Assembly: GCA_001775095.1 (NCBI GenBank)
Contig: MFCA01000029.1
Span: 55,975-119,974, forward strand
DNA: 64,000 bases
Direction of reading: 5' to 3'
DNA from: Candidatus Curtissbacteria bacterium RIFOXYA1_FULL_41_14
GTDB lineage: Bacteria; Patescibacteriota; Microgenomatia; Curtissbacterales; GWA2-41-24
Part shown: piece by piece, positions 705 to 35,727 of the stretch
How positions within the stretch are numbered: the stretch's first letter is position 1
Layout: the number at the start of each line of letters is the position of its first letter
Position numbers and translations under genes: made by a program
The notes under the pieces: generated by a model
The model's database searches: none
Told to the model about the DNA's origin: nothing
Seen by the model: only the letters and a program-made list of their open reading frames with translations

Positions 705-795
705 TCCTTTCTGTCATCCTGAACTTACCCGCCCTGAGCGAGGTCGAAGGGATTCAGGATCTATATAGATTCCGAAATGAATTCGGAATGACAAT
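705..795. repeat. GC-rich nested palindromic element (family B copy) between convergent genes
   Basis: Seen: tgtcatcctgaa...ttcaggat inverted repeat, ccctgagcgaggtcgaaggg core, then perfect palindrome attccgaa-atga-ttcggaat, bracketed by tgtcat/atgaca. The same cores recur at 13596-13650, 19859-19893, 22224-22304 and 35163-35249. Confidence 0.6.
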
Positions 796-883
796 TAGTC
801 GAAAAACCTTTGTATTCTTCGAACGAAGTGAGAAGTTTGATAGTTCTCGCTCCGCTCGAACAATAAGAGTTTTCAATAAGCCC

Positions 884-2500
884 TTAACTCTTTTTACTGG
901 CATAAGGGGTCCTTCTATATTCAGGATCATACTGGCTCATATCAAATGGATTATTATAGTCAAGACAACCGCTACAGTGAGAAGCGTGCATTTGATCAAC
1001 TGTCATTTCAAGTGAAGCAGCAAGCCCTTCCAGACTTAAATAATATAAGGAAGCAACTTTAAGATTTTTTTGAATTTCCTCTTGAGACATTATTCTATAT
1101 TGACCTTTTTTATTTTTGTCGACTGCCCCCAACTCATCACGAGAACCGATATTTACCCCTAAAAAGCACGGGTTGACAAAACGCGGAGCCAGGAATCGAC
1201 AATGGATTTCCCTGACACCGATTTCCAGTAAATGTTTAACCAAAATTTTGTAAGTATTAAGCCGGACACCGGTATCGTCAATTAAGTAAATTGATTTACC
1301 AATTATCGATGGAGATACGAAAAACTTCTTTTCGATTTGCCTTTCCCTAAGATAGGGGTCGTCCTCAATGAAAGTCCGCCTTGCCCAATCGTATCTTTCT
1401 TTGACAAGTCCACGAGTGTAGACCATTTTAAGATTGAATCTTGAAAGCTCCTGTTTAAGGGTCTCATAAAAAGTAAGGGCGCCTGGTCTAGCAGTATCCG
1501 GAACAGCCACAACATAGTCAATATTTTCAATATCATCCTTTTTGATGATCCCATCTGCAACTCTTACTGCTTCCTCTTTGGCAAGCTGTGCTCCTAAATT
1601 ATTTCTGTTTTCGCCAATTACGAAGCCATGCCACATGGAAGTTTCGTGGGAAAAATAAAGTTTTTCAAAAACACAAAAGGCGTGTTTTTTAACCGGGGTA
1701 TAGTTAGTTTGTGAAACTCCGTTTTTGTCAGCTATTAAAAGTTGCCCGGGCTCAATCCGCTGGCTATGGCGAATGTTAATTCTATCAAGGGCGCAAGTTT
1801 CAGAAGCAACAAAAACATGGCCGTTATCTTGTGTCCAAACCAGAGGCCTTACCCCCCAAGGATCACGAAGAGCCATTAACTTATCATCACCAGTTACCAT
1901 CACCAGCGAATAGGCACCTTTGACATCGGATAGAGCATTGGTAATTTTCTGCTTCCAAGTAGAACCGGGCGCGGTTACAATCAGCCATGTCAAAATTTCC
2001 GAATCTGAATCTGATTCTGTTTCGACTCCGAGTTTTTTGAGTTTATTAAAATGCCTTTTGATATCGACAACATTACCATTATGCCCAAGTGCCAATTCCC
2101 AACCTTTATATGAGGCATAAAAGGGCTGGGCGTCGCAATTTTGCCGGCTGGCGCCCTCTGTCGGGTAACGAAGATGGGCAATTGCAATTTCGCCACGGAG
2201 AGAGTGATCTTCGATTACATCAACTGAGGAAAATATTTCATTAAAAGCTCTGGCTTTTTTGTAGACTTTAAGTATTTTGCCTTGCGGTTTAACAGCCACT
2301 CCTCCCCCATTTTGACCTCTGTGCTGGAGTGCCTTACCCATCTCAATAACCGAATTGACGACATTTATGCCTCCTTGGGCATAACCGCCCGCAATTCCGC
2401 AATAATGATGGAGCTCTGTCGGAATATGTTTTGTCACAAAAAATAGCTTTTTAGGAGAATTCCTTGAATTCAGTATGAACTGCAGGCCGATTTTTTTCAA
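884..2500 (-). CDS. purF: amidophosphoribosyltransferase (glutamine PRPP amidotransferase), with N-terminal propeptide-like extension
   Basis: Ntn-amidotransferase motifs CGIAG...HRGQ...AHLRYPTEG, a PRTase region (IDYVVAVPDTARPGALTF; YLIDDTGVRLNT) and a C-terminal CFLGV/SLEGL/CSGCL block that resembles Bacillus-type PurF. About 35 residues precede the catalytic Cys. Confidence 0.8.
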   Translation of the reverse strand: MKKIGLQFILNSRNSPKKLFFVTKHIPTELHHYCGIAGGYAQGGINVVNSVIEMGKALQHRGQNGGGVAVKPQGKILKVYKKARAFNEIFSSVDVIEDHSLRGEIAIAHLRYPTEGASRQNCDAQPFYASYKGWELALGHNGNVVDIKRHFNKLKKLGVETESDSDSEILTWLIVTAPGSTWKQKITNALSDVKGAYSLVMVTGDDKLMALRDPWGVRPLVWTQDNGHVFVASETCALDRINIRHSQRIEPGQLLIADKNGVSQTNYTPVKKHAFCVFEKLYFSHETSMWHGFVIGENRNNLGAQLAKEEAVRVADGIIKKDDIENIDYVVAVPDTARPGALTFYETLKQELSRFNLKMVYTRGLVKERYDWARRTFIEDDPYLRERQIEKKFFVSPSIIGKSIYLIDDTGVRLNTYKILVKHLLEIGVREIHCRFLAPRFVNPCFLGVNIGSRDELGAVDKNKKGQYRIMSQEEIQKNLKVASLYYLSLEGLAASLEMTVDQMHASHCSGCLDYNNPFDMSQYDPEYRRTPYASKKS

Positions 2501-2520
2501 GTGGGAGTGATTTTAGGGGT

Positions 2521-3882
2521 TCAACCCGAATTTGCGGTCGGACCCCTATTTAGCCTGGAGTTGATTTGTGATGCCAAACTTGCAATTTTTACTCTTTCTT
2601 GTTTTGTCGTGTCACGATCACGGATAGTTACTGTATCATCCTCCAAAGTTTTAAAGTCGATGGTCACACAATACGGCGTGCCGATTTCGTCCTGAGAGTA
2701 ATAACGCTTTCCGATATTTCCCCGCTCATCCCAGGCAATGGGTAAAAGTTCACGGTTCACAGTTAACAGTTCACGGACCAAGCGGGCTTTTTTGACTAGT
2801 TCCGGTTTGTTGGCCAAAAGCGGGAAGACGGCAACCTTGACCGGTGCAAGTTTGGGATTAAGTTTTAGGACAACTCGGCCTTGTCCTGAGTTTGTCGAAG
2901 GATCTTTGTCTTCATTATATGCGTCAATTAAAAAGAAGAGTGCGGCGCGGTCTACACCTCCTGAGGTTTCAATAATCCATGGCAAATAATGCTTACCGGT
3001 TTCCTGATCGAAGTATTGCATATCTTGACCGGAAGATTTTTGATGTTGTGAAAGATCCCAGTCCCCCCGATTGTGAATTCCTTCGAACTCTTTCCAGCCA
3101 AAGGGTGAATCGTATTCAATATCCCAAGCATCCCGGGCATAATGGGCTCGTTCATTTTCTTCGTGCTGACGGAAACGGAGCTTGTTTTCAGTCATACCTA
3201 GCGTCCGGTACCAATTCATTCTTTCTTTTTTCCAATATTCATACCATTTTCTTGCCTGGCTTTCTTCTGGTTTGATATAAAACTGCAGTTCCATCTGTTC
3301 AAATTCTCTTGAGCGGAAAGTAAAGTTCCCCGGGTTAATTTCGTTGCGGAAAGCCTTACCTATTTGGGCAATCCCAAAAGGTATTTGCAGTCTTGTCGAG
3401 TCTAAAACATTTTTAAAGTTGACATGAACACCTTGAGTAATTTCGCCGCGAAGATAAACCTTTTGTTTAGCCTCCTCAACTACTCCTAATTTTGCCTCAA
3501 CCAAAAGATTGAATTTTCTGGACGGGGTCCATTGGGTCTTTTTGCCTTGGTGAGATTTTTCGTGACCTGCCAAATCTTCTTTTTGATCCGCCTTAAATCT
3601 TTGATGACAGATTTTACACTCCACCAAAGGATCGACAAAAGCCTTGACATGGCCGGACGCTTCCCAAACCTTTGGATTCATCAAGATTGCTGCATCAATC
3701 CCGACAACATCATTCCGTCCGTAAACAGTTGATTGCCAAAAAGCTTCCTTGATATTGTTTTTAAGTTCTACACCCAAAGGACCATAATCCCAAGTTCCCC
3801 CCAAGCCGCCATAAATTTCTGAGCCCGGAAAAATAAAGCCTCGGCGCTTACAAAGAGAAACGATCTTATCAAGAGTAGTCAT
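2521..3882 (-). CDS. glyQS: glycine--tRNA ligase, dimeric class II form
   Basis: N-terminus MTTLDKIVSLCKRRGFIFPGSEIYGGLGGTWDYGPLG is the classic GlyQS signature. Full-length, 453 aa. Confidence 0.9.
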   Translation of the reverse strand: MTTLDKIVSLCKRRGFIFPGSEIYGGLGGTWDYGPLGVELKNNIKEAFWQSTVYGRNDVVGIDAAILMNPKVWEASGHVKAFVDPLVECKICHQRFKADQKEDLAGHEKSHQGKKTQWTPSRKFNLLVEAKLGVVEEAKQKVYLRGEITQGVHVNFKNVLDSTRLQIPFGIAQIGKAFRNEINPGNFTFRSREFEQMELQFYIKPEESQARKWYEYWKKERMNWYRTLGMTENKLRFRQHEENERAHYARDAWDIEYDSPFGWKEFEGIHNRGDWDLSQHQKSSGQDMQYFDQETGKHYLPWIIETSGGVDRAALFFLIDAYNEDKDPSTNSGQGRVVLKLNPKLAPVKVAVFPLLANKPELVKKARLVRELLTVNRELLPIAWDERGNIGKRYYSQDEIGTPYCVTIDFKTLEDDTVTIRDRDTTKQERVKIASLASQINSRLNRGPTANSG

Positions 3883-4730
3883 TTTGAGGAAACAACGACA
3901 TATGTTGCGAAGGAGTCAGTCGTTGCAGAAATGGTCTTGGAAGCACTGTCGTAATTTGAATCAAGCTTTGCCCATTTGGAATCAGTATGATTGTAGCTAT
4001 AAAGTTGGGGGTTTTCGACATCTTGGGTAAGTTTGATGCTTAAAGGGGCACTTTTTGAAAAGACGGGCGCCACCGAAAAAGTACCATAAACAGGTAAAAC
4101 TACGCCTTTAATATCAAATTGGCCATTTGCCGGAACACCGACTGTGTCTGAAATAATCACAAAATAATTTTTGCCGAGAGTTGGAGAGGTCATTTGAAAA
4201 TTACCGGACTGATCTTTAAGCGTTGCTGAGCTTGCGACAATTTGCTCAAAACCCCAACCGGTTTCAGACTGATATTCTGTCTCTCCTTTGAACATATGTA
4301 TTGTCAGTTTGCCATCGGTTATCCCGGTATCCGGACTTCGAACACCTTTTGAAGCTGTACCCAGTAGAATCGATTTCTTATACTTTGGATCTTTGGTATT
4401 TACATCAATACCCGTTGCACCCCGCTGGATCTTTTCACCGGCGATATTAGGGTTGTCTGCCAAGTAAGTTAGCTCATACTCGATCTGGTCAAAATCAGTC
4501 ATATTCTCAATAGAGAGTAAAATTTCTGCGCCGTCAGAGGTTGGTGTCAAAGTCACATAGGGACGCTTTGCAACATCAATTTCATTTAGCTGTCTAACTT
4601 CCCCTGAAACCTCCTCGGGCTTAATTTGTCCAGGCCCTTTTTGAAAGATAAATAAGAAGTAAACAGCGACTAAAATACCTATAAAACCGATAGCAGCAAT
4701 GATGTAAGTGTTGCGTTTAGCCTGATCCAT
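3879..4730 (-). CDS. hypothetical membrane-anchored protein (one N-terminal TM, extracytoplasmic domain)
   Basis: N-terminal hydrophobic helix IIAAIGFIGILVAVYFLFIF followed by a 250-aa hydrophilic domain. 4-bp overlap with glyQS stop suggests co-transcription. Confidence 0.45.
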   Translation of the reverse strand: MDQAKRNTYIIAAIGFIGILVAVYFLFIFQKGPGQIKPEEVSGEVRQLNEIDVAKRPYVTLTPTSDGAEILLSIENMTDFDQIEYELTYLADNPNIAGEKIQRGATGIDVNTKDPKYKKSILLGTASKGVRSPDTGITDGKLTIHMFKGETEYQSETGWGFEQIVASSATLKDQSGNFQMTSPTLGKNYFVIISDTVGVPANGQFDIKGVVLPVYGTFSVAPVFSKSAPLSIKLTQDVENPQLYSYNHTDSKWAKLDSNYDSASKTISATTDSFATYVVVSSK

Positions 4731-4878
4731 CTCAATTTAAATTTCGAAATCCTAAATTCTAAATCCGAAACAAATCCAAATATTCAAAATTCTAAATTCA
4801 AAATACCTAATGTTCAAGAACTTGAATTTAGATATTGTTTAGAATTTCGTGCTTAGTATTTTGGACTTGCAAACAAAA
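4731..4878. repeat. AT-rich intergenic inverted-repeat element, family A copy 1
   Basis: cctaaattctaaatccgaaacaaatccaaat ... gaatttagatattgtttagaatttcg. The arms are mutually complementary. Related copies at 8069-8250, 14534-14701 and 17331-17422. Confidence 0.55.
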
Positions 4879-5502
4879 CTATAAAAACCGTGAGGTTTTG
4901 AGTTTTGTTTGAGTAAGGTTCTCAATTATGCTATCAAGAAATTGCAAAAGTTTCAAATATGACCTGTCTGTGAGTTTGATCTTTTCTTTAATCTTGCCAA
5001 AATCTGCATTTTCCAGGGTTTCAAAAAGATTTTTCGCATTTGAATTTTTGATGTTTTTCGCGGAAAAAAAACCAAGTGTTGATAAAAGTTTGATTTTAAA
5101 TGTAAGTGAGAGTAATCTAAAATCTTCGCCATCGGTAATTCTTTTAAGAAAGCCGACAAGTAGAATAAAAACAGAAAGATTTTTCTGTTTTTCCGCTGTT
5201 AAATTATCAACAAGCTCCAAAAGATGATAGATTTTATTGGCCTTTTGTTCGCTGAAATCGACTATTCCAAAAGAACGCTTTAGTTCAACTTCTGTCAATA
5301 AATCAAGATTCCTGCCCCGAGCAACAAAAATCCGACACCAATTGCCAAGTTCGAGATGACCAGCTTTTCTGGATCTTGGACGACGGACACCTTTGGCAAG
5401 TGCAACAATCTTACCATGATCGCGACTACAAATAGTTAAGATTCTATCCGCTTCTGCGAAATTACGACGCGCTAGAATCACGCCTTCGGTTTTAAAATAC
5501 AT
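4879..5502 (-). CDS. recO: DNA repair protein RecO
   Basis: N-terminal OB-fold signature MYFKTEGVILARRNFAEADRILTICSRDHGKIVALAKGVRR. Length 207 aa. Confidence 0.7.
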   Translation of the reverse strand: MYFKTEGVILARRNFAEADRILTICSRDHGKIVALAKGVRRPRSRKAGHLELGNWCRIFVARGRNLDLLTEVELKRSFGIVDFSEQKANKIYHLLELVDNLTAEKQKNLSVFILLVGFLKRITDGEDFRLLSLTFKIKLLSTLGFFSAKNIKNSNAKNLFETLENADFGKIKEKIKLTDRSYLKLLQFLDSIIENLTQTKLKTSRFL

Positions 5503-5568
5503 AACTTACTACCCCATCGATTCAGACTCGTTTGGGGAGGGTAGATAATACATGCAACAATTTGAATA

Positions 5569-7380
5569 TTAAAGCCTGAAAATGAGTTCCTTGTCGGTAT
5601 CGAGAGGGAAAGCTTTTTGTTTTTTACCAAAAGCCTCAATTTCGTAAGTATGGCCTTTTATACCACCTTGCTTTTGAATAAGAAGTTTATACTGATTGTC
5701 AACTTTTAGAGGGACTGTATATTCAATTTCGAATTTCAGCGAGCCCTCTGGCCTCAGCTCAAAAAACCCTTCAAAAACCGTTTTTGTAAGATCCTCGGTC
5801 TCGGTGAATTCCAATCCATCTGTTTTCGTAATCTTGGATCCCTTAGGAACATAAACTCTTATCCAATCTCTGTAAATCCCGGCCAGACACAAACCACCTT
5901 GACGTTCAAGTGAACAATTGTCCATTTTACGCGGGTACTTATATTCAATTGTTAGCTTTTTCTCTAAATTATTATCTTTACCTTTTTTAACAGTTTGTTT
6001 AACCTTTTCCTGAACGTAGAGATTCGATTTGGCACCGGCAAAATTGGTTTCGTTAATCAGGAAGTAATCACCATCATATTGATTGAGACGCCCGGCAAAA
6101 TTAATTTTCTCGGCGGCTTCTTGAAGATTTGCTCGTTTAAAATATAAAAGCAGATGTTTTTCACGAAGAGCTGTTATCGTCGTTCCCAAAAGATTCGGCC
6201 ACGAGGATTTGGGGGCATTAAATGCTTTATCCATCATTTGCTGCATTAAAACACCAATAATATCTTTGCGCGCGCCTTTCTCATAGGCCACTGGTTCGTC
6301 AGCAAATTTTTCCAGTTCATAAATAATCTGCGGACATGCACAAGCTTCAACTTCATCAGTTGTGAATTTGGCACCGTAGGCATCAATTGGTCCAAGTACT
6401 TTCATCATCGCCAAAACAAATTCGGTATCCAGTGCAACGATCCCGTCAATTTCTTTTTTAGCTTGGGTAGCATTGTATAGTTCCTCGAATTGTTGCATCG
6501 AGGCGTAATAGTCGGGAGAGAGGTTAGAATCCCGCAAATTTAAAGTACTAACATTCGGAAGATATTTAACAATTGGTTCGGGTGCAGGAATTTTCTTAAG
6601 AAGCGTATTATCCAACTCATAAATATCCTGTGAGCCCTCTGAGGCGATGAGGCCGTTGTTGACTCTAAAAATTGCATAGGCAGTAATAAATCCTCCGGTA
6701 GGCCGAAGTTCTTTGTCGTTCTGAAATAGGACCAGGTATTTTTTCTCGCTTGTAGCACCCATAATTTCGGGTAAAACTAAAAGCAAAGGTTTAGTATCGA
6801 CGATAAACGACTCCAGCTGATCAATAGTATTTCTGGCAGTTCTGATTTTAGTACCAGGTTTACCGGGTAAAATATCCGGATAACGCCAAGGTTGAATCTG
6901 ATCTATCCTGTTTCTGGCTTGACCTAGGCTTTTGCCTACTTCATCTATCTGAGGGGTAACTTTTGATAAAGTTTCAATAGCCTTAGCCAGTCTCTCCTGA
7001 GCAGTACCACCTAAAAATGTGCCTTCACCTTCCAAACCCAACACATCCGCATATGGTGTAATAGCCTCAGCCAGAGTACTTGCTCCTTCGAGTCCATAGA
7101 TTGCCCCATCAACACCTCTTTGGATATCGGCAACATACCAACCAAAAAGCGGGATAATCCTTAATGGGGAAAATACGAAGATAAATTTTTTTGTTGTTTT
7201 AAACTCTTTAGTAGCATCACGCAAATAGGCCTTTGTTGCATTCAAATCCTGTAATTTAAAAGCACCGACTGCTTTCTGAGTCGTCGCGATAGCCGTTCGA
7301 GCTGACAGAATTGTTAAAATCCCAAACAGACCAAAAACTGCAATAAAAACTATTAAAATAAGAATTATCCGCCTCTTCAT
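5569..7380 (-). CDS. DUF4012-like membrane-anchored protein of polysaccharide loci
   Basis: N-terminal TM, then LVLFQNDKELRPTGGFITAYA, which resembles the DUF4012 core motif. 603 aa. Assignment from memory of the family signature. Confidence 0.45.
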   Translation of the reverse strand: MKRRIILILIVFIAVFGLFGILTILSARTAIATTQKAVGAFKLQDLNATKAYLRDATKEFKTTKKFIFVFSPLRIIPLFGWYVADIQRGVDGAIYGLEGASTLAEAITPYADVLGLEGEGTFLGGTAQERLAKAIETLSKVTPQIDEVGKSLGQARNRIDQIQPWRYPDILPGKPGTKIRTARNTIDQLESFIVDTKPLLLVLPEIMGATSEKKYLVLFQNDKELRPTGGFITAYAIFRVNNGLIASEGSQDIYELDNTLLKKIPAPEPIVKYLPNVSTLNLRDSNLSPDYYASMQQFEELYNATQAKKEIDGIVALDTEFVLAMMKVLGPIDAYGAKFTTDEVEACACPQIIYELEKFADEPVAYEKGARKDIIGVLMQQMMDKAFNAPKSSWPNLLGTTITALREKHLLLYFKRANLQEAAEKINFAGRLNQYDGDYFLINETNFAGAKSNLYVQEKVKQTVKKGKDNNLEKKLTIEYKYPRKMDNCSLERQGGLCLAGIYRDWIRVYVPKGSKITKTDGLEFTETEDLTKTVFEGFFELRPEGSLKFEIEYTVPLKVDNQYKLLIQKQGGIKGHTYEIEAFGKKQKAFPLDTDKELIFRL

Positions 7381-7417
7381 AAATTTAAAATTGAAGATTT
7401 AAAATTGAAGATTTTCA

Positions 7418-8068
7418 TTATATTGCACCCTTTGTACTTATCATGGCAATTGGAGTCTTAATTACAATCCCAAGGTCATAGAGGATAGATTTTCTTTTAA
7501 TATAATCTGCATCCATCTCTACTCTCTTGTCGAAATTGATAGACGACCTACCTGAAACCTGCCAGGGCCCAGAAGCACCTGGTCTGGCTGTAAGAATTAT
7601 TTTAACGCATTTACGAGTTGTAGGGTAGACTTTTTGTTGATGAATAAGCTCATCTTGTTGATAAGCCCGGGGTCCAACAAGTGACATATCGCCAATTAAA
7701 ACATTTACTAACTGCGGTAATTCGTCAAGGGAAAATTTTCTCAAGATTTTACCAACTGATGTAATTCTGGGATCACGCTTCAATTTAAAACTGTTTTCTT
7801 GATACTGGCGCATTAGTTTTGGGTGGCTTTGCAGATATTTTTCTGCATGGACCCACGTCCCTTTGATTTTGTACATATGCATACTTCTAAACTTAAGCAT
7901 TTTAAATTGACTGCCGTCTTTACCAACGCGAAGCGGGTTATAAAATAGAGGACCAGGTGAGGTTGATTTAACCAGTAGTGCCACAAATATTATTATTGGA
8001 GAAAAAATAATAAGGCTTACAAGACTACCTATAATATCAATAGTACGTTTAGTGAAGTAGTAAAACAT
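7418..8068 (-). CDS. small monotopic phosphoglycosyl transferase (bacterial sugar transferase, PglC/WbaP C-terminal type), initiating enzyme
   Basis: Signature DELPQLVNVLIGDMSLVGPRA plus N-terminal re-entrant hydrophobic segment. 216 aa. Confidence 0.85.
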   Translation of the reverse strand: MFYYFTKRTIDIIGSLVSLIIFSPIIIFVALLVKSTSPGPLFYNPLRVGKDGSQFKMLKFRSMHMYKIKGTWVHAEKYLQSHPKLMRQYQENSFKLKRDPRITSVGKILRKFSLDELPQLVNVLIGDMSLVGPRAYQQDELIHQQKVYPTTRKCVKIILTARPGASGPWQVSGRSSINFDKRVEMDADYIKRKSILYDLGIVIKTPIAMISTKGAI

Positions 8069-8250
8069 ATCCTGAAAAATTCTAATTTCTAAATCCTAAA
8101 TCCTAAACAAATCTAAATGACCAAAATATAAAATTTAAAACAATTTAAAAAAAACAAATTTACTTTTTTGTTTTTTGAACATTTGAATTTTGATATTGTT
8201 TAGAGTTTAGAATTTAGCGTTTAGAATTTGATTAGCTATTAGGTCAATTT
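8069..8250. repeat. AT-rich intergenic inverted-repeat element, family A copy 2
   Basis: tctaaatcctaaatcctaaacaaatctaaatgaccaaaata...ttgaacatttgaattttgatattgtttagagtttagaatttag. Nearly identical to 14534-14701. Lies between a gene 3' end and the next gene start on the minus strand. Confidence 0.6.
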
Positions 8251-9351
8251 CTACAAATATTCTTCTTTCTCGGCGTCTTTGAGTTTTTCAATTATCTTCT
8301 TGACATCATGAGTTCTTCCCTTTGAGCAAACTAAGAGAGCATCCTCCGTATCGACAATGATTAGCCCTTCCAGTCCGATGGCTGCAATAACTTTCTGATT
8401 TTTGTTTGAGTAGACAAGACAGTCTTTAAGATCCAAATCAATTACCTCTCCCTGCAGTATATTGTCTTGAGGATGAGAAGCCATTTCGTCTTTTAGTTCA
8501 TTCCATGTTCCGACATCCCTCCAACCCAGATCTGCAGAGACGACTACTTGGTCTTGACCTGTCAGATGAGAATTGACCGCGAAGTCTATAGAAGTTTTAG
8601 GAATTTTTTCGTATTCTCTTTCCAAAACCGATTCCTGCTGGTCTCCCCCCCATGCTTTTTGAATTTTGGATAGAGGTACAAAGCCTTTTGGAAAGAACTT
8701 CTCAATTTGGGAAAGCATTTTTCCCGCTGGCCAAAGTGCATAGCCTACATGCCAGAGATATTCCCAGGATTCCACGAATTTTTTGGCTTGAGCAAAATCG
8801 GGTTTTTCAATTTGGGCAACAAATTCGAAAACTGCTATACCGTTAACTTTTTTTAGCATTTTGCCAACTTGTAAATAGCCCAAGGCGGTACTTGCAAAGG
8901 TCGGCCTTACACCGATTTCGACGAATTTACCAGTTTCTGCGACTGTTTGATTTGCCAGTAAAATTGCTTTGATAAATTCCGGACCGTTGCGTACTACATG
9001 ATCACACCAAATAGCCAAGACATTTGGATTATCAAACTTTTTATCCAAAACTGCGGCCGCTAAGCCGACAGCTGCACCAGTATCTCGCATTTGTGGTTCG
9101 ATAACGATGTTCTCAAGTGGAATCTGAGGAGCAAGTTTAACAATCCAACCAACACAATCACGGGTGGTTATGGGAAATATGTCACGGAAAGGGAACTCTT
9201 GTTTTAAAAGATTTACCATAATCTCAAAAGTGGACAAATTGTTGATAAGCGGCTGGAATTGTTTGGGAAGTGCCCTTCTGCTCATCGGCCACATACGAGT
9301 GCCGGATCCACCGCAAAAAAGAGCGATTTTTAAGTTTCTATGATTCTGCAT
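8251..9351 (-). CDS. mannose-1-phosphate guanylyltransferase-like sugar nucleotidyltransferase
   Basis: LFCGGSGTRMWPMSR nucleotidyltransferase P-loop. Length matches ManC without the isomerase domain. Confidence 0.7.
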   Translation of the reverse strand: MQNHRNLKIALFCGGSGTRMWPMSRRALPKQFQPLINNLSTFEIMVNLLKQEFPFRDIFPITTRDCVGWIVKLAPQIPLENIVIEPQMRDTGAAVGLAAAVLDKKFDNPNVLAIWCDHVVRNGPEFIKAILLANQTVAETGKFVEIGVRPTFASTALGYLQVGKMLKKVNGIAVFEFVAQIEKPDFAQAKKFVESWEYLWHVGYALWPAGKMLSQIEKFFPKGFVPLSKIQKAWGGDQQESVLEREYEKIPKTSIDFAVNSHLTGQDQVVVSADLGWRDVGTWNELKDEMASHPQDNILQGEVIDLDLKDCLVYSNKNQKVIAAIGLEGLIIVDTEDALLVCSKGRTHDVKKIIEKLKDAEKEEYL

Positions 9352-9430
9352 GTTATTAAAGTATCAAAGGTATCAAAGGTTATAGAACATTATGCGTATG
9401 ATACTTGTGGTACTTCTGATACTTGTGGTA
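9352..9430. repeat. tandem direct repeats (gtatcaaag x2; 18-mer gatacttgtggtacttct x2.5)
   Basis: Seen directly. The 18-mer array encodes the SQVSEVPQVSEVPQVS tail of the GT4 at 9390-10535 on the minus strand. Confidence 0.65.
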
Positions 9431-10535
9431 CTTCTGATACTTGTGATACATATCTCTCGAGTTCTTCTATAAAGTGCTTTTTCGAGAATCTCGTCGCGTT
9501 CTTCCTGCAAACTTGTATCTTCCATTTTACCCTACTTAATCTTCCAATTGCATCTTGGAGTGCTTGCGCCGATTGATTATCAAATAAAATTCCAGTTCTG
9601 CCATCTTCGACAGTCTCACTGACACCGCTTTGCCTATAAGCAATTACCGGAATACCACAGGCTTGTGCCTCTACTGCAGCAATACCAAAATCTTCTTCCT
9701 GGGTCACTATCAGGGCCTGGCAATTTTGATAAAGTTCGCGAAGCTGCTCTCTTGTTACTCTGCCAAGAAACTCAATATCTCCTGTCCTGTCATCTCGAAC
9801 CAATCTTTTAAGTCTCGATCTATCCGGTCCCTCCCCGACTATTTTTAGACTTTTTCCCATATTAGATATTGCCTTAATTGCTATATCAATCTTTTTCCAT
9901 TTCACGAGTCTGGTGACCACTAGGAAATAATTTTGACTTTTAAGTTCCCAGTTGTGAACTTTGGCAACCTGGAAAAAATTTAGGTCAACGAACGGATAAA
10001 TTACTTCGGACTCTCTTTCGTAAAATTTTTTAATTTTTTTGCTAATATTTGCCGAATTCGCGACAAACAAATCAGGTCGACAGGAGGATACTTTATCCCA
10101 TCTTTTGAGCCATATTAAGATTGGCTTAAAAATGAGTCTTAACATAATTGGTAAATAATCAGCCTGAGCTTTGCGCCCGTATAAAAATCTTGGAATACTG
10201 TTCATATAGCAAATATGCATCGTTCTGGGTTGAGTAATAATTGATTTGGCGAAGCGGGTAGTTGAGGAGATTACAAGATCGAATTCATTGAAATTAAAAC
10301 TCTCAAATGCCAATGGGTAAAGTGGTAAAAGAGCTTTATACAATTTGGCAGCAAAAGGAATTTTCTGCATCCAGGAGGGCCGGATTCTATCCCGGTTTAT
10401 TGTGGAAGGTAATTTCTTCCAATCAACGAAGGAGGTATAGATTGGAGCTTTGGGCCAAATGGAAGCGATGGTAGCAAACAGACTCTCCGCTCCTCCGGCT
10501 TGAACGAAGTCATCGTGTACAAGGGCTACTTTCAT
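9390..10535 (-). CDS. glycosyltransferase family 4 with repetitive C-terminal tail
   Basis: GT4 architecture with EDFGIAAVEAQACGIPVIA donor-binding motif. C-terminus ends in a repeat-encoded VSEVPQ tract. Confidence 0.8.
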   Translation of the reverse strand: MKVALVHDDFVQAGGAESLFATIASIWPKAPIYTSFVDWKKLPSTINRDRIRPSWMQKIPFAAKLYKALLPLYPLAFESFNFNEFDLVISSTTRFAKSIITQPRTMHICYMNSIPRFLYGRKAQADYLPIMLRLIFKPILIWLKRWDKVSSCRPDLFVANSANISKKIKKFYERESEVIYPFVDLNFFQVAKVHNWELKSQNYFLVVTRLVKWKKIDIAIKAISNMGKSLKIVGEGPDRSRLKRLVRDDRTGDIEFLGRVTREQLRELYQNCQALIVTQEEDFGIAAVEAQACGIPVIAYRQSGVSETVEDGRTGILFDNQSAQALQDAIGRLSRVKWKIQVCRKNATRFSKKHFIEELERYVSQVSEVPQVSEVPQVSYA

Positions 10536-10575
10536 GGGGTAATTATATCAACTGTTTTAGTGATACACTAAATAT

Positions 10576-10770
10576 ATGGTCCGGGGGGTTGTAAGTTTGT
10601 TATTGCTTTTGATTACAATTATCATATTAGCTTTAATTTTTATTTTGGCAAATCCTTTCTCCGCAAGTAAAAACGAGGCAACTAGCCCACAAAAAATTCA
10701 AGAAACTCAAGATGTAATTGATAATTATCAGCAAAAATCTCTAGAAAGACAAACGATAGAAGTCGAGTAG
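10576..10770 (+). CDS. possible small membrane protein (64 aa)
   Basis: Only plus-strand ORF in a 248-bp gap. Hydrophobic helix LLLLLITIIILALIFILA then a polar tail. Preceded by perfect hairpin tttagtg-atac-cactaaa. No homology evidence. Confidence 0.25.
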   Translation: MVRGVVSLLLLLITIIILALIFILANPFSASKNEATSPQKIQETQDVIDNYQQKSLERQTIEVE

Positions 10771-26313: not shown

Positions 26314-27198
26314 TTATTTAAATTTTGGTTCTTGAAAAAAAGATCTAATTACGGAAACAAACACACCTAGATCGTAAATTATTTTGAAAACAACAAATGA
26401 CAATTGGCCCGTGACAGTTGACTTAAAAATTCCAATTAATATGGATACCAGTAAGTTATACAAAAATAGTGACCGAATTTTACGAAGTAGCGAACCACTA
26501 ATAAACTCATTTTTCCCAATCCAACGAGCTTGCTTGAAAACTTCCTTAAGAGATGTTGGGTTTGAGTGGAAATATACTGCACCAGGAGCCAAAGTCGATT
26601 TAATATTCAGTTTTCGAGAAAGACTCCAATCATCGGTATATTCACCAGTCGCATCGAAGCCTCCTACCTTATTAAATTCTTTTTTTAAAATTGCCCTGAA
26701 GACTGGTGCCTGATTCGGGTAATCTGGAGGTAACATTCGATCCTTGGGAACATTTCTGTTAATGTTCCAGCAAATTGACCAAATGTTATTATAATTAGCG
26801 ACCATTTCATTTTTTGAAAAAGTGCCGATCGTTCTGCTGTCTAGAATTGGATTAACTAAGTCTTTGATAAAATCCCTATCAAAGGTCATATCAGCATCCA
26901 CAAAAACGAGGATTTCGCCGTGGGCTTTCGATGCGCCAAGATTTCTAGCTGAGCCCGGACCTTTATGATTTTGCTCAAGCAATTGGAAATTGGAAATTGG
27001 AAATTCCCGACCTCGTCTCGACTTGGTCGAGGACGGGTTGAAATTTGAAATTATTCTGAGTGTCCTATCACTCGAGCCATCATCGACAAGAATAATTTCC
27101 ATTGGTTTATAACTCTGGCTTAAAAGTGATTGAAGACATCTTTTTATAACTTTCTCTTCGTTATAAACTGGGGTAACTATAGATATGAGATTATTCAT
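26314..27198 (-). CDS. glycosyltransferase family 2 carrying an in-frame repeat-derived insert
   Basis: ISIVTPVYNE...ILVDDGSSDRT...GPGSARNLG...FVDADM. Extra segment NFNPSSTKSRRGREFPISNFQ is encoded by repeat 26981-27054. Confidence 0.75.
   Translation of the reverse strand: MNNLISIVTPVYNEEKVIKRCLQSLLSQSYKPMEIILVDDGSSDRTLRIISNFNPSSTKSRRGREFPISNFQLLEQNHKGPGSARNLGASKAHGEILVFVDADMTFDRDFIKDLVNPILDSRTIGTFSKNEMVANYNNIWSICWNINRNVPKDRMLPPDYPNQAPVFRAILKKEFNKVGGFDATGEYTDDWSLSRKLNIKSTLAPGAVYFHSNPTSLKEVFKQARWIGKNEFISGSLLRKIRSLFLYNLLVSILIGIFKSTVTGQLSFVVFKIIYDLGVFVSVIRSFFQEPKFK
26981..27054. repeat. (AATTGGA)x3 heptamer tract plus GC-rich palindrome inside GT2 coding sequence
   Basis: aattggaaattggaaattggaaatt-cccgacctcgtctcgacttggtcgaggacggg-ttgaaatttgaaatt. 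The palindrome cccgacctcg/cgaggacggg has one mismatch. Confidence 0.6.
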
Positions 27199-27203
27199 AA
27201 GTA

Positions 27204-28271
27204 TTATGAAATTGATAACTTATTAATAAGAGCTTGGTATTTTTGAGCCACTTTATTCCAGCTAAATTTTAGAGCTTGGGTGTAAGGAATATTTTTATAA
27301 TTTGTTTTTGCAGCAAGTTCTAGATCCTTGGCATACTGCTCAACGTTACCGGGATCAGTAAGAATTCCAGCGGGACCGATTATTTCAGCCCTGGAATCAT
27401 CTGCAGTGGTCACTACAGGGAGATTGCAGGCCATAGCCTCAACATAAGAAATTCCAAATGCTTCTGTTTTTGAAGCGAGAGTAAAAACATTTCCCGACCT
27501 GTAATAAGCAGGAATTTGCTCATAGGGCACCACTAATCTTAAATATCTTTTGCCTAAGAGCCTTTTGCCAAGAGTATCAATCATCCCATGCAACTGACCA
27601 TCTCCTAATATTAAAAGGCTTAAGTTTTTTGTCTTAGCAATAGCTTTAATGGTTAAATCCACTCTTTTATAGGGAACAAGGGCCGAAGCACAAACTGCTA
27701 TTGGCTTCGCTAGAGGCAAAGTCTTCGATTTAACCTTTGGATTGAAACGTGCCAGGTCAACTCCATTAGGAATTGTAACTATCTCGACCTCCGGAGCTAA
27801 CCGTTTTGCCCAGTCAGCCTCTGCCTTAGTTAAAGCTACAAAGACGTCAGGTCTAAAAAAAAGATTGGCGGCATCATCCGAGCCTATGCCCGCATGGCCA
27901 GAGGTTAAAATTTTTGCTCCTGTGATTTTCGTAACTATCCTAAAAACTAGTGTCTGCCATCCGCCGTTTAGGGGAATAATTAAATCGTATTTCCCTCTAT
28001 AGATCTTGAGTAAGGCTCTTAAGCTAAAAATCAATATTTTGACGGAACTCCAATCTAAATAAAATTTACTAAGTACGCCGCAAGTTGACTTTGGGGTACT
28101 GACGAACGATTTAATTTCTTCAACCCTATATTTTTGTGGTTTTGTATGGCCGGCCGCAAAAACCGTCACCTTATGTTTAACAGATAGACGTTTGCTAATT
28201 TCAAAAGCAAACGTTTCCACTCCCCTGTCGACTATCCCGGAATAGAAACTTAAAATAGCAATTTTATACAT
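27204..28271 (-). CDS. glycosyltransferase family 4 (start re-assigned to MYKIAILSF; track ORF extends to 28367 through the duplicated region)
   Basis: Canonical GT4 N-terminus MYKIAILSFYSG and SKTEAFGISYVEAMACNLPVV. The 31-aa upstream extension in the track is translation of repeat DNA. Confidence 0.8.
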   Translation of the reverse strand: MYKIAILSFYSGIVDRGVETFAFEISKRLSVKHKVTVFAAGHTKPQKYRVEEIKSFVSTPKSTCGVLSKFYLDWSSVKILIFSLRALLKIYRGKYDLIIPLNGGWQTLVFRIVTKITGAKILTSGHAGIGSDDAANLFFRPDVFVALTKAEADWAKRLAPEVEIVTIPNGVDLARFNPKVKSKTLPLAKPIAVCASALVPYKRVDLTIKAIAKTKNLSLLILGDGQLHGMIDTLGKRLLGKRYLRLVVPYEQIPAYYRSGNVFTLASKTEAFGISYVEAMACNLPVVTTADDSRAEIIGPAGILTDPGNVEQYAKDLELAAKTNYKNIPYTQALKFSWNKVAQKYQALINKLSIS

Positions 28272-28535
28272 ATTGGTAAAGTTTCTGCGGTCCTCGTTCC
28301 TCGATATCAGCCTTCGCCTTCGGCGAATCTGATATATCAGAGGAGTAATATTGAAACAAAGTTTCAAATTGATCTGCTGATATAAACTCGGAACTGCGGG
28401 CCTAAGAAACTTAAAATAGCAATTTTATACATATTGGTAAAGTTTCTGCGGTCCTCGTTCCTCGATATCAGAGGAGCAATATTGAAACAAAGTTTCAAAT
28501 TGATCTGCTGATATAAACTCGGAACTGCGGGCCTA
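28245..28535. repeat. tandem duplication (units ~160 bp and ~131 bp) covering promoter region and first 9 codons of GT4 27204-28271
   Basis: gaaacttaaaatagcaattttatacatattggtaaagtttctgcggtcctcgttcctcgatatcag[30-bp extra in copy 1]aggag(t/c)aatattgaaacaaagtttcaaattgatctgctgatataaactcggaactgcgggcctaa occurs twice head-to-tail. Copy 2 carries a 22-codon pseudo-ORF starting MYKIAILSF. Confidence 0.85.
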
Positions 28536-28566
28536 AGAAACTAAGAATTGCGATCTTGGTTATTTT

Positions 28567-32778: not shown

Positions 32779-34048
32779 TTAACTTGAAAAGAACATAAAA
32801 AAGCATTAGAGAAAAAGCCAAGAATTCACTTATTGTGAAAGCATAGGCAGCACCAATTGCTTCAAAACTCGGCACTGCAAGAAAGAGCAGAATTACAAAG
32901 AACCAATAGCGCGAAAACGTGATTGCAAATGATATTTGTGATTTTCCGAAATAGTAAAGGATTATTGAGGAAGGAATGGTTGATAAGAAAAAGAAAATAA
33001 AGCCAATTGCTAAAATTTTGAGAACTTGAATGGAGCCGCTAAACTCTTTGCCGAAAATCAAAATAACTAAGGGATCGGCAATAAGAATTAAAAATAGGAG
33101 TCCCAAACTAAATAGTAATACTAGACCGCTTGTTTTCTTGGCAAAATTAATTACTTTTTCTTTATTATCAAAAGAAGCAAAACGTGATGCTAAGACGCTT
33201 GTAAAGTTGCCTCCAAATTCATAAACAACCGTTAATATCTTTAAGGGAGCAGCATAAAGGCCAGTTTGAATAGGTCCGGCTAGCTTCAGAAGAAAGTAAT
33301 TATCAAATGGGATTGAGGCTAGTGTTAATGAAAAAGCAACCCAAATATTGAATTTAAAGAAATCACTGGCAAGGCTTTTGTCGATTTTTTCAATATTAAA
33401 TGGTAAAAAGTATTTGCCAATTATGGTGGAGATAATGGTTACGGCAAAGTAAATAACTGTCAAAAAATACAATCCAATTGTAAAAAAATATGAACCGATT
33501 AAAAGGAGAACAATTCTTGCAACATTATTGGCGATAGAAGGAATTGACGCTTTAAGAAATTCCTGCCTCGCCTGAAGCCCGGCAACAAATAAATTAGTCA
33601 GATGAAAAAAAACTGTTGCTCCAAAGGCAATTCTTAAAAAGAGAGTAATTTCTGGGTGTCCTAAAATAGCAGAAAGGATTGGCGCTATGAAAAAGCCGAT
33701 TACCGCTATTATCAGACCGAAAAATAAATACGACTTGAGGGCAATTGAAAGAATTGCATTTTGCTGGTTTGAACTCCTGTGGGCAAATTTTAGTATTCCG
33801 GTTTCGACACCTAGGCTTGACAACCGAACCGCTACTACTCCTGTCGCAACAACTGTTGAAAATATACCAAAATCTGAAGGCCCAAGAATTCGCGGTGCAA
33901 GAATAAAAAATAATCCACCGACAATTACGTTGACAAGAGTTCCGGCAAAAACTATTGAAGTATCTTTACCTGTATCGGTTAAAAGAAGATCTTTAAAAGA
34001 TTGAATCATTCGGTCAAAGTATAAGCAAAGCTTGCGGTCCTCGTCCAC
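32759..34048 (-). CDS. Wzx-type polysaccharide flippase (MOP superfamily); ATG start probably at 34009
   Basis: 12-TM Polysacc_synt-like architecture. Track uses a GTG start inside repeat element 34033-34071; internal ATG (MIQSFKDLLL) is more plausible. Confidence 0.55.
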   Translation of the reverse strand: MDEDRKLCLYFDRMIQSFKDLLLTDTGKDTSIVFAGTLVNVIVGGLFFILAPRILGPSDFGIFSTVVATGVVAVRLSSLGVETGILKFAHRSSNQQNAILSIALKSYLFFGLIIAVIGFFIAPILSAILGHPEITLFLRIAFGATVFFHLTNLFVAGLQARQEFLKASIPSIANNVARIVLLLIGSYFFTIGLYFLTVIYFAVTIISTIIGKYFLPFNIEKIDKSLASDFFKFNIWVAFSLTLASIPFDNYFLLKLAGPIQTGLYAAPLKILTVVYEFGGNFTSVLASRFASFDNKEKVINFAKKTSGLVLLFSLGLLFLILIADPLVILIFGKEFSGSIQVLKILAIGFIFFFLSTIPSSIILYYFGKSQISFAITFSRYWFFVILLFLAVPSFEAIGAAYAFTISEFLAFSLMLFYVLFKLNAKNVN

Positions 34049-34071
34049 TTCACAGTGGACTGCGGGCCTAA
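34033..34071. repeat. family C element (tgcggtcctcg ... ctgcgggcctaa) minimal copy
   Basis: Same terminal motifs as the boundaries of each unit in the 28245-28535 duplication. Inner part is a short palindrome ccacttcacagtgg. Confidence 0.45.
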
Positions 34072-34080
34072 CAATTTTTC

Positions 34081-35727
34081 TTACTGATCAAACCAACCTG
34101 TACTGTTATTCATTACAACAACTTCAATATTGCCAAAAGGTGCATTTTTCACCTCATGATATTTTAAAACAGCATATCGTTTGTAAAAATCTTCAGTCTC
34201 CGGCGTAAAGTCATGAATGACGAAGGAAACTACAGTTGGAGGATGTTTTTGGGCAACAGGAGTTGTTCCATAAAGGTAAGCGAAATTTGGGTCGACATAG
34301 CTCTTAACCGGTTCTTGGCCAAAAACGGCAAACAAATACCGATATCCTGAGTACCTCCAACAAGTTGAAAGTGAATCCAGAGAAAATGGTTTATCCCCTA
34401 CTTGCTGCATAGTAAATTCGATCGCCTGCCTTTTATAAGTCAGGCCCATGCTGTTTTTAGCATTTAAGAGTTTATTGAGATTAAAGACTATAAAAAGACC
34501 AAGTACTAAAAGCCACAATTTTTTGGGGAGTAAACTTACGATGTTGGCAAAAATCAGAAGAAAAAGTGCGAATAAACCTGCTATGTAATGCTCAAAAATA
34601 TCAGCTCTAAAAATAGTTCCATACAGCTGGATACCAACAAGATATAGAATCACAAGTATAGCAATAAGCCGCCAACCTACATTTTCTTGATTTTTCCCGA
34701 GAGCCCAGACGACAAAACCAATGATAGAAATCGATGAGAGAAATACTAGAATAGGAGGAATTACTTGATATTTTTCTTTGACAAACGCCTGGCAATATGA
34801 ATATTGCTTAGCTATTTGATTGTCATCGAATGTATAAATAAGACGAGTAAAGGCTCGAGGGAAAAGTGAAGAATTATTAATGAATTTTTGCATTTCAAAT
34901 CCGGGGTCGTTCCTCCCCTGCTTCCAGAACCCGACAACTGGTTTTGTATTGGCAAAGTTGTGCCTAAGGTCAAATAGGATAAGAGGCAGAAATGAGAAAG
35001 TAATTAGTCCAAGCGCAAAAAAAGTACTCTTTTTAATCGGCAGCTTGTAGATTATCCAAGCCAAAATTGCAAGCACAAGAAAAACTAAGTTAGATGGATC
35101 AGCATGAATACTAAGAGCAATGGTTAGACCTAAGAAGTAAATGTATTTATCATTTAGATTTTTCGTCCTGAGATTGCTTCGCGGAGTATATCCCGAGATT
35201 CTTCGAGAGGCTCGCAATGACATCGAAGGGCTCAGAATGACAGCGTGAGAGTGGATAATTTTGTAAAGACAAAAGACAACTATCAGCGAAACTAGCGGAC
35301 CCCAATAAAGCGCCCACAGATGTCGATCATAAACATTGGCAAGATATGAAAATGCCCAGAAAATAGCAGCTGTCAGAGCAATCTTTTTGGAACTAAATAC
35401 TTTGCCAACTACAAATATCATAAAAGTAGTGGCCATAGCTATGATAGCTGAAGCGTAACCCCAGGCAATTGGATTAAGTTTTCCCAAAAATAAAATGGCC
35501 GAATAAAACCAATAAAAATATGGCCCAAGGTGAAAATTAAAAGGCGTTACCCCGCCTATCAGCGGAATATGTTTCCAGAGAATTAATCGCCTTCCAACAA
35601 ATGCAGGAATTGATTCGTCATAAGTGAAATAAAAAAGTTCTTCAAGCTTTATTACCCTAAGAATAAATGTAATAACAATAAGTAGAATAACCGGCCAAAA
35701 TTTGGCGATTTTGCTCATTTTTTGCAA
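34081..35727 (-). CDS. GT-C membrane glycosyltransferase, ArnT/PMT_2-like, carrying an in-frame repeat-derived insert
   Basis: Loop FYFTYDESIPAFVGRRL (DE motif), about 13 TM helices. Segment HSHAVILSPSMSLRASRRISGYTPRSNLRT is encoded by repeat 35163-35249. Confidence 0.55.
   Translation of the reverse strand: MQKMSKIAKFWPVILLIVITFILRVIKLEELFYFTYDESIPAFVGRRLILWKHIPLIGGVTPFNFHLGPYFYWFYSAILFLGKLNPIAWGYASAIIAMATTFMIFVVGKVFSSKKIALTAAIFWAFSYLANVYDRHLWALYWGPLVSLIVVFCLYKIIHSHAVILSPSMSLRASRRISGYTPRSNLRTKNLNDKYIYFLGLTIALSIHADPSNLVFLVLAILAWIIYKLPIKKSTFFALGLITFSFLPLILFDLRHNFANTKPVVGFWKQGRNDPGFEMQKFINNSSLFPRAFTRLIYTFDDNQIAKQYSYCQAFVKEKYQVIPPILVFLSSISIIGFVVWALGKNQENVGWRLIAILVILYLVGIQLYGTIFRADIFEHYIAGLFALFLLIFANIVSLLPKKLWLLVLGLFIVFNLNKLLNAKNSMGLTYKRQAIEFTMQQVGDKPFSLDSLSTCWRYSGYRYLFAVFGQEPVKSYVDPNFAYLYGTTPVAQKHPPTVVSFVIHDFTPETEDFYKRYAVLKYHEVKNAPFGNIEVVVMNNSTGWFDQ
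35163..35249. repeat. family B element inserted in-frame in GT-C gene
   Basis: Minus-sense ctgtcattctgagcccttcgatgtcattgcgagcctctcgaagaatctcgggat...ctcaggacga. Contains GTCATTCTGAG and CCTTCGA cores shared with other family B copies. Confidence 0.55.

Follow-up and report, generated by a model that had tools for sequence, protein, structure and literature searches.

How does repeat DNA come to lie, in frame, inside protein-coding genes? The question is raised by a 64-kb stretch of DNA from Candidatus Curtissbacteria bacterium RIFOXYA1_FULL_41_14, a groundwater organism with a very small genome (contig MFCA01000029.1); the stretch is referred to here as the window, in which a first-pass annotation had proposed a single family of short GC-rich palindromic repeats at seven loci, five of them within glycosyltransferase genes. 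All seven loci hold repeat DNA beyond chance. This DNA comprises more than one family and forms three nested layers: tandem heptamer arrays, hairpins of the repetitive extragenic palindromic (REP) type with a (C/T)GTC-AT head, and a unit of 24 nucleotides (nt). Our preferred reading, to which we assign a probability of roughly 70%, is that these are selfish or neutral mini-elements resembling REPs and the small dispersed repeats (SDRs) of Nostoc, kept only where they lie in frame in tolerant loops.

In-frame inserts in six host proteins

Sequence was compared across 843 kb of Curtissbacteria DNA, made up of the window and 779 kb of related loci. Three motifs exceed chance in the window: GTCATYCYGAR has five matches (713, 13590 and 19851 on the plus strand; 782 and 35231 on the minus strand) against 0.18 expected, the 18-nt core CCTGAGCGAAGTCGAAGG has two (733 and 22272, with up to three mismatches) against 0.00, and GTGAACYGTGAAC has seven (up to one mismatch) against 0.10. 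The proposal that all sites share the same cores held only in part, as 26981-27054, a GGAAATT heptamer array split by a different palindrome of 32 nt, has none of the four cores named and 12850-12900 has only GTGAAC heptamers and a 13-nt palindrome. The single family had to be abandoned: the copies do not align as one, and two of the elements, palindromes of 32 nt and 49 nt, are each found at one locus only in the 843 kb.

The in-frame inserts occur in six proteins, namely four glycosyltransferases with Pfam support (called GT2a, GT2b, GT4a and GT4b here), one GT-C-like membrane protein (without a Pfam match, the label "GT-C" resting on a UniRef name only) and glycyl-tRNA synthetase (GlyRS). 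The five coding copies first reported all lie within uninterrupted open reading frames (ORFs) on the minus strand, so the reading frame is indeed preserved, and they add 16 to 31 residues that the window paralogs lack. The same segments are missing, host by host, from most or all orthologs. The GT2a insert is absent from 14 of 16 distinct site sequences in related loci, most protein matches being ~296 aa long and without it; 15 of 18 distinct GT4b orthologs have no insert at the fourth variable position; and none of 12 aligned homologs, those 64 to 71% identical included, carries the insert of the GT-C-like protein, where representative matches break at residues 160 to 192. These segments are lineage-specific insertions.

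Assembly artefact was ruled out as their source. The five host proteins that we looked up have been assembled independently many times, inserts included (on as many as 72 contigs in NCBI, JGI, ENA and Logan; the 548-aa GT-C-like form on two contigs only), and the NCBI name attached to proteins identical to those of the window is Candidatus Curtissbacteria (Candidate Phyla Radiation [CPR]/Microgenomates). Insert-spanning peptides predicted from the frame include ILVHSSPFDFAQGR and DPSTNSGQGR.

The 24-nt unit and its core

The 24-nt unit GCCTGCCCTGAGCGAAGTCGAAGG can be written GCCTG-CCCTGAG-CGAAGT-CGAAGG, a hairpin CCCTGAG-CGAAGT-CGAAGGG preceded by GCCTG. By its sequence, it is a REP-type hairpin minus the CGTC-AT head. 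It is present at non-homologous sites in the window (as a close variant in the case of the REP loop):

727-750, plus strand: 24-nt unit ACCCGCCCTGAGCGAGGTCGAAGG, nested in the loop of an intergenic REP hairpin (unit A, listed below), whose loop without it is CTTGA (5 nt)
2878-2901, plus strand: variant GCCTTGTCCTGAGTTTGTCGAAGG, in frame in GlyRS, encoding PSTNSGQG
22266-22289, plus strand: GCCTGCCCTGAGCGAAGTCGAAGG, exactly between two GTGAACT units of the GT4b array, encoding SPFDFAQG

The junctions of the GT4b copy can be read from related locus L128, whose GT4b ortholog is 61% identical in protein sequence and has inverted GTGAAC-type arrays as in the window. The DNA alignment shows one clean 24-nt gap between intact GTGAACT units, and target duplication is absent. 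Junctions of like type occur within other heptamer arrays in loci L010 and L124; in the latter, a GT2b ortholog, an AATTACA array is interrupted by CCTTCGACTTCGCTCAGGGCGAGC, which is the 24-nt unit. The identical 24-nt sequence is found in three arrays of unrelated units (window GT4b, L010 and L124). It is also independent of reading frame: in the six cases read (window GT4b, window GlyRS, L124, L010, L004 and L078), the coding strand is the one that reads CCTTCGAC, and each of the three frames is represented.

These observations bear on a purely local origin, in which palindromes would arise by hairpin-induced template switching or error-prone repair within arrays and similar cores would reflect mutational bias. 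The two single-locus palindromes would fit such an origin, as would the facts that heptamer arrays clearly evolve in place and differ in copy number between strains. Against it stand the identical unit in three unrelated arrays with a close variant in a REP loop, the clean 24-nt indel with no other local change, and the occurrence of the exact core in many phyla (among the matches listed) and on viral contigs, described next. We regard a purely local origin as distinctly improbable.

An exact search for the 20-nt core CCCTGAGCGARGTCGAAGGG, with one genome per species, returned at least 120 stretches against a rough chance expectation of ~10. The matches listed come from Acidobacteriota, Sphingomonadaceae, Bacteroidota, Chloroflexota, Patescibacteria, Spirochaetes, Verrucomicrobiota and others, and include the cyanobacterium Coleofasciculus. 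Among these listed matches, the flanks are unrelated between genomes, the five bases upstream favour GCYYG, and flanks that pair perfectly over 7 bp or more surround the core in 15 of 122 cases, compared with 0.7% in controls. By this strict test, the notion that the core always sits at a hairpin apex is only partly true. The very stable mini-hairpin d(GCGAAGC) was likewise considered as a hallmark and rejected (45 matches to GCGAAGC versus 59 expected). Sphingomonadaceae loci carry the core as inverted pairs resembling REPINs (REP doublets). In low-GC loci, the core falls within long ORFs mainly of CPR bacteria (Curtissbacteria L010; Saccharibacteria L004 and L078), and a few long ORFs span it in other lineages; the L078 ORF, on a visual reading of the flanking peptide, resembles the N terminus of a leucyl-tRNA synthetase. 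We found no mention of the core sequence, in either orientation, in the literature searched.

The exact 20-nt core was also present on 45 predicted viral contigs (IMG/VR, L207-L251). These copies could mark prophage or host borders or represent a vehicle for spread between lineages. One may go further and suppose that the 24-nt unit is among the smallest mobile elements known, with cross-phylum reach, that a conserved trans-acting activity copies it into hairpin apexes and between repeat units with CPR heptamer arrays as landing pads, and that slippage plus insertion is a routine way of building loops; we offer this extension tentatively and consider it doubtful.

GlyRS, in which the first-pass annotation had missed both the 24-nt unit and a second element, shows that presence of the unit is polymorphic between strains, a comparison that had been proposed as a check:

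2747-2776, minus strand: heptamer array GTGAACN x4 (coding strand) in the anticodon-binding domain of GlyRS, a 90% reverse-complement match to 12866-12896

In a sister strain, GTAGTCN x5 stands at this site in place of GTGAACN x4, and the strain on contig k141_3448444 has GlyRS without the 24-nt unit. Contig L002, from another sample, is 99.24% identical to positions 1-13900 of the window over 13.9 kb. The two differ by four single-base changes and otherwise only within GlyRS at 2719-2950 and in an 18-nt tandem unit (9399-9416), of which the window has one copy more (2.8 versus 1.8) with the frame kept. The 232 bp in GlyRS contain 84 differing positions (~36%), mostly synonymous, and hold both repeat elements: GTGAACN x4 together with the 24-nt unit (DPSTNSGQG) in the window, and GTAGTCN x5 without the unit in L002. 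The segment is a recombination patch with a divergent allele and points to short-tract homologous recombination between distinct Curtissbacteria lineages.

Heptamer arrays, hairpins and host loops

Heptamer arrays as an insertion platform had also escaped notice. Tandem Repeats Finder reported 21 arrays of period 7 in the window, 7 being the commonest tandem period, and a stricter count gave nine against 0.3 expected, with no comparable excess at other periods. Period 7 was again the commonest class in the 779 kb of related loci (128 arrays). Intergenic arrays often form inverted pairs, and several others lie within coding sequence:

4730-4870: intergenic inverted heptamer arrays, TCTAAAT-type, from repeat searches
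8077-8229, 14537-14687, 17336-17457 and 22950-23014: like intergenic inverted arrays, from repeat searches
9361-9449: 9/18-nt tandem arrays in the spacer and C-terminal codons of the GT4 gene 9390-10535
12842-12895, minus strand: in-frame insert of GT4a encoding VHGSQSTVHRIEKHPWGE, composed of a 13-nt palindrome CACCCCAGGGGTG (12844-12856) and GTGAACC-type heptamers (12869-12896)
12996-13028: perfect array AACTTTG x4.7 in GT4a, encoding SSKFKVQSSKF
21892-21940: 49-nt GC-rich palindrome (folding z, -3.8) in the second in-frame insert of GT4b, ANSLTPEVKSGRHPENTPGVDLRC (nt 21880-21951)
22215-22303: inverted pair of GTGAAC-type heptamer arrays in GT4b, forming a hairpin with an A/T-rich loop
26980-27051: GT2b heptamer array, AATTTCM when read on the coding strand, interrupted at 27006-27037 by a palindrome of 32 nt, CCCGACCTCGTCTCGACTTGGTCGAGGACGGG (z, -2.6 for 26975-27060)

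The last codons of two genes, a Wzy_C-like gene (17423-19087) and the GT4 gene 23002-24141, are encoded by an arm of an intergenic heptamer hairpin (17423-17457 and 22988-23014, respectively), so turnover of the arrays would alter the C termini of both proteins.

Orthologs fall into three states at fixed sites: some have no array, some have an array built from one of at least seven units, and some have both an array and a GC-rich insert. This holds for the GT2b site and for the third variable position of GT4b. The arrays may be permissive, perhaps preferred, insertion targets. The GT2b site lies between the DDGS and GPG motifs, where the window reads ATTTCAAATTTCAA[CCCGTCCTCGACCAAGTCGAGACGAGGTCGGG]AATTTCCAATTTCCAATTTCCAATTG. 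An array is lacking in some GT2b orthologs (278 aa), purely heptameric in most (~283 aa) and interrupted by a GC-rich insert in a minority; the units differ by lineage (AATTGGA, CAATTGT, AATTTCA, AGTTTCC, ATCTCAA and others). In an ortholog 74% identical to GT2b, the 32-nt element recurs with one mismatch. As that array has one heptamer more upstream and one fewer downstream, the element is read in another frame, giving PVLDRVETRSG there and PSSTKSRRGRE in the window. Conservation is at the level of the DNA rather than the peptide, which argues against selection on the peptide.

The GT4a and GT4b inserts occupy the same alignment position. GT4b orthologs have variable inserts at four positions; at the third, most carry heptamer arrays with units differing by lineage, and at the fourth, the three orthologs that do have an insert carry unrelated GC-rich ones of 23 to 24 aa. 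The first-pass annotation had placed the inserts in tolerated surface loops, and the AlphaFold model of GT4b bears this out. Its mean predicted local distance difference test (pLDDT) score is 85, and the only segments below 50 (residues 222-241 and 337-355) coincide exactly with the two inserts, each connecting a helix and a strand in the C-terminal Rossmann domain. The GT2b insert also falls between a helix and a strand in the predicted structure, with a reduced confidence of 66 to 73, a weaker indication than for GT4b. The models support the view that the inserts are loops tolerated by the host enzyme fold.

Two side observations concern GT4 genes. A perfect inverted repeat of 13 nt (AGAATCTTGAAAG...CTTTCAAGATTCT in GT4b) encodes the conserved motif KNLERLL(Q/E)AFKIL and directly adjoins the heptamer insert in both paralogs (12899-12936 and 22304-22340). 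The 5' end of the GT4 gene 27204-28367 and its upstream region form a near-perfect tandem duplication (28244-28557; 67 nt at 100% and 93 nt at 94%), of which the motif CTGCGGTCCTCG...ACTGCGGGCCTAA recurs between genes at 34045-34068.

The remaining layer consists of the REP-type hairpins, to which we add a palindrome in a leader:

712-793: intergenic dimer of two TGTC-tagged REP hairpins; DNA fold of -18.6 kcal/mol, z of -4.3 (705-800)
712-761, plus strand: REP unit A, perfect 8-bp stem ATCCTGAA/TTCAGGAT, tail CTA
768-793, minus strand: REP unit B, perfect 8-bp stem ATTCCGAA/TTCGGAAT, 5-nt loop, tail CTA
13590-13621, plus strand: intergenic TGTC-tagged unit GTCATCCTGAGGAAGCAAAGCGACCAAAGGAT, a weak hairpin between a GT2 paralog and the point at which GT4a probably begins
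19850-19876, plus strand: CGTC-tagged REP unit CGTCATCCCGAGCGTCAGCGAGGGATC, in frame in GT2a, giving RSLADARDD within a 16-aa insert (nt 19839-19886)
35164-35241: compound in the GT-C-like protein, in which three or more CGTC/GTCAT-type units abut or are nested, with a CGTC head on the plus strand at 35164 and GTCAT heads on the minus strand at 35241 and 35221
21550-21569: perfect GC-rich palindrome CCTGCCTGCCAGCAGGCAGG of 20 nt in a hexapeptide-transferase leader, absent from the paralogous leader at ~38000

CGTC tags stand at 19850 and 35164, and TGTC tags stand at 712, 793 (minus strand) and 13589. The intergenic copy that had been placed at 13596 is present and starts at 13590; the first six codons of the GT4a ORF beside it are probably untranslated, because most members of its cluster have 393 rather than 399 aa. 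The compound in the GT-C-like protein makes up an in-frame insert of 31 aa (nt 35158-35250) between transmembrane segments.

These hairpins show covarying stems and an invariant centre. In GT2a, the unit is CGTC-ATCCCGAG-CGTCAG-CGAGGGAT-C and its ortholog in L141 is CGTC-ATCCTGAG-CGTTAG-CGAAGGAT-C, with a compensatory T:A to C:G change around GAG...CGA; the clade closest to the window GT2a carries one to three RSLADARDD-type units. Over all loci, the pattern N5-GAG-loop-CGA-N5' has perfectly complementary outer stems in 78 of 2,502 candidates, a set gathered by core match and hence biased, against 2.4 expected. There are 27 distinct stems, and 38 of the 78 have other stems. In Curtissbacteria loci, 15 of 735 have perfect outer stems against 0.7 expected. 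From its sequence, the GAG...CGA centre would pair as tandem G.A.

Folding z-scores relative to shuffles were strong for 705-800 (-4.3), 21885-21945 (-3.8) and 26975-27060 (-2.6). The palindromic character first reported is thus confirmed at two of the named loci and extends to the additional one at 21885-21945, and 19845-95, 35160-255 and 13585-655 behave like shuffles. The idea that all copies are strong hairpins was rejected, four of nine regions failing by this measure.

The palindrome at 21550-21569, like the copies at 12996-13028 and 21892-21940, was new to this analysis. A conserved leader of ~100 nt precedes both hexapeptide-transferase genes (21454-21690 and 37993-38130, minus strand), with a hairpin that shows a compensatory change (GAGGGCTTTTAGCCCTC versus GAGGACTTTCAGTCCTC) and AAACTT/AAGTTT pairing flanks. 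It is a candidate cis-regulatory RNA without an Rfam match.

Could the elements be functional nucleic-acid hairpins, such as terminators or attenuators, mRNA-stabilising sites, RNase-processing sites or translation-pause sites, with the coding copies being regulatory? Intergenic inverted heptamer arrays do lie between codirectional genes, where terminators are expected, stems covary around a constant centre, and the REPs described in the literature, located for the most part immediately 3' of ORFs, are believed to work at the RNA level (PMC3733652). Yet most orthologs manage without the elements at the same positions, heptamer unit sequences vary freely between lineages, several coding copies fold no better than shuffles, and a search of the window at Rfam gathering thresholds returned nothing. 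We consider such a function unlikely.

The first-pass annotation had further suggested that the elements generate variation in the glycosylation machinery. The minus strand carries nearly all genes of the window (~37% G+C) up to 42.6 kb, and the window is a large envelope-glycan cluster with genes for GT2, GT4, PMT_2, Wzy_C, flippase, sugar transferase, methyltransferase and hexapeptide transferase; RecO, DUF4012 and GlyRS lie at its left end. If the elements were kept as variable glycosyltransferase loops that diversify the cell-surface glycan machinery, one could point to the five of six proteins with GC-rich inserts that are glycosyltransferases or GT-like and to the high variability of the same loop positions among orthologs. 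The five coding copies do lie in such genes. However, glycosyltransferases account for about half of the genes in the region anyway, GlyRS carries two elements, and long ORFs of other CPR genomes are also struck, so the hits show no specificity. Moreover, orthologs read the same DNA in different frames without conserving the peptide, the GT4b inserts are modelled as disordered (pLDDT below 50), and further copies lie in intergenic DNA and in a leader. We found no evidence of a role in varying glycosylation, and adaptive diversification of loops seems very improbable. As a side observation, four ORFs of 190 to 524 aa in the window (41026-43905, 3879-4730 and 65-637) lack a Pfam match even at an E-value of 1.

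Origin of the elements and comparison with known systems

We infer that the elements are selfish or neutral and that the arrays originate by slippage. Heptamer arrays form and change at their own sites, probably through slippage during replication; they occupy spacers and a few loop-coding positions, and some inverted pairs can fold as hairpins. The REP hairpins, which measure ~25 nt and carry their (C/T)GTC-AT head next to a stem with the constant GAG...CGA centre, and the 24-nt unit behave as nonautonomous mobile or recombinogenic elements: they occur at non-homologous sites and are absent at orthologous sites in relatives. Their insertion leaves the target unduplicated and takes place between heptamer units or within hairpin loops, those of their own kind among them. 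As the genome is ~90% coding, many insertions would strike genes, and only those that keep the frame, bring no stop codon and fall in a tolerant surface loop would survive, leaving disordered loops of 16 to 31 aa. Homologous recombination between strains may also add or remove element-bearing alleles. Our best guess for the mobilising activity is a trans-acting one on single-stranded DNA (HUH/Y1, similar to the REP-associated tyrosine transposases [RAYTs]) that would act on hairpins at the replication fork; an RNA intermediate, as proposed for the Nostoc SDR elements, would be an alternative route.

Several results weigh against selfish or neutral mobile elements. The sole strain-level case of presence and absence lies in the GlyRS recombination patch and therefore reflects allelic exchange, with no transposition caught. 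No transposase, integrase or reverse transcriptase is present among the window ORFs annotated up to 46.9 kb, and a tblastn search of the 843 kb gave no match to an IS200 TnpA query of approximate sequence. Copy numbers are low, with the core found once more and GTCAT heads six more times in the 779 kb of related genomes. The single-locus 32-nt and 49-nt palindromes are at most putatively mobile, the regions 19845-95, 35160-255 and 13585-655 fold no better than shuffles by nearest-neighbour energies, and translation of the inserts is predicted from frame preservation only.

CPR genomes are ~1 Mb in size and have almost no spare intergenic space, and here repeat DNA persists in frame inside genes. 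The three ortholog states provide a visible stepwise route to loop growth. Among the proteins predicted for CPR bacteria, many of the odd, hydrophilic loops of low complexity are derived from repeats and are not functional motifs; such loops degrade alignments and phylogenies and are usable as strain markers. How elements of REP and SDR size move is a standing question, and the 24-nt unit, because of its clean junctions and the presence of the same core in many phyla, could be a usable handle on it.

Among known systems, miniature inverted-repeat transposable elements have terminal inverted repeats and a target-site duplication and measure 70 to 300 bp; the units here are too small, and no duplication was seen at three clean junctions. 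The GC clusters and "byp" elements of yeast mitochondria are short GC-rich palindromes that spread in an AT-rich compact genome, protein-coding genes included. The byp elements break the reading frame and are bypassed by the ribosome, whereas every copy here preserves the frame, and the host belongs to another domain of life. The closest behavioural match is with the SDR elements of Nostoc and Anabaena, which are reportedly 21 to 27 nt long, lie in tandem heptamers (STRR) and hairpins, are nested, leave no target duplication, differ in presence between relatives and are said to be confined to a cyanobacterial subgroup. The size of the 24-nt unit, the heptamer arrays, the hairpin loops, the nesting and the lack of target duplication all recall this reported description. 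The likeness is one of behaviour, and the CPR host, the spread of the core over many phyla and the many copies in coding sequence set our elements apart.

In the REP/REPIN-RAYT system (PMC3116915), short hairpins with a conserved head and inverted doublets resemble those seen here, including the REPIN-like pairs of the core in Sphingomonadaceae loci; unlike in that system, no RAYT gene was found near any copy, among annotated genes or, by the tblastn search described above, in the 843 kb. The first-pass annotation had likened the repeats to the Rickettsia palindromic elements (RPEs). According to PMC10969869, which relays Ogata et al. 2000, RPE-1-type palindromes of ~150 bp lie in frame in unrelated genes of a small, AT-rich genome, appear compatible with the host fold and encode one conserved peptide per family. 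Insertion in frame into unrelated ORFs, in six host proteins, is similar here. Units of 24 to 49 nt (largest compound, 78 nt) are smaller than the ~100 to 150 bp of that type, and one and the same DNA element can be translated in different frames, with no single conserved peptide.

The comparison with Rickettsia does fit in sequence architecture, through the CGTC-tagged REP superfamily that Di Nocera, De Gregorio and Rocco (BMC Genomics 14:522, 2013; PMC3733652) defined together with the GTAG-tagged one and that includes RPE-4 and RPE-6 of Rickettsia conorii. These REPs have a CGTC tag (variants, TGTC or CCTC), stems of 8 to 9 bp starting with AT, loops of 4 to 5 nt and a 3-nt tail close to CCA, and most units form dimers (PMC3733652). 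They are dispersed in tens to thousands of copies per genome without association with transposase genes and are reported in five phyla, mostly in alpha-Proteobacteria (PMC3733652). Our GTCAT-headed units share the (C/T)GTC tag, the AT-initial stem and the dimer organisation. The stems at 712-793 are perfect over 8 bp, and those of the GT2a unit (19850) and L141 have eight positions with two G.A/A.G; loops measure 5 nt in both unit B and, minus the 24-nt unit, unit A, and 6 nt in GT2a, and the tails are CTA, CTA and CTG rather than CCA. Unlike CGTC REPs, most units have 6-nt loops and a GAG...CGA centre in which two positions depart from Watson-Crick pairing, and they occur in a CPR host, at low copy number (five GTCAT heads in the window and six more in 779 kb of related genomes), and nested with the 24-nt unit and heptamer arrays.

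We found no prior description of such elements in CPR bacteria in the literature searched, and the RepRanger REP survey does not mention Patescibacteria. In-frame insertion, which the first-pass annotation had taken to be rare outside Rickettsia, is in fact well catalogued: intragenic GTAG and CGTC REPs lie in frame in many species, in several frames, in tRNA synthetases among other genes, and give peptides like VIPAKAGI (PMC3733652). One GT4b ortholog in our set encodes VIPAKAGIH, the classic CGTC-1 peptide. Since in-frame REPs were described in 2013, what is new here is not the phenomenon itself but the CPR lineage in which it occurs and the nesting of its elements.

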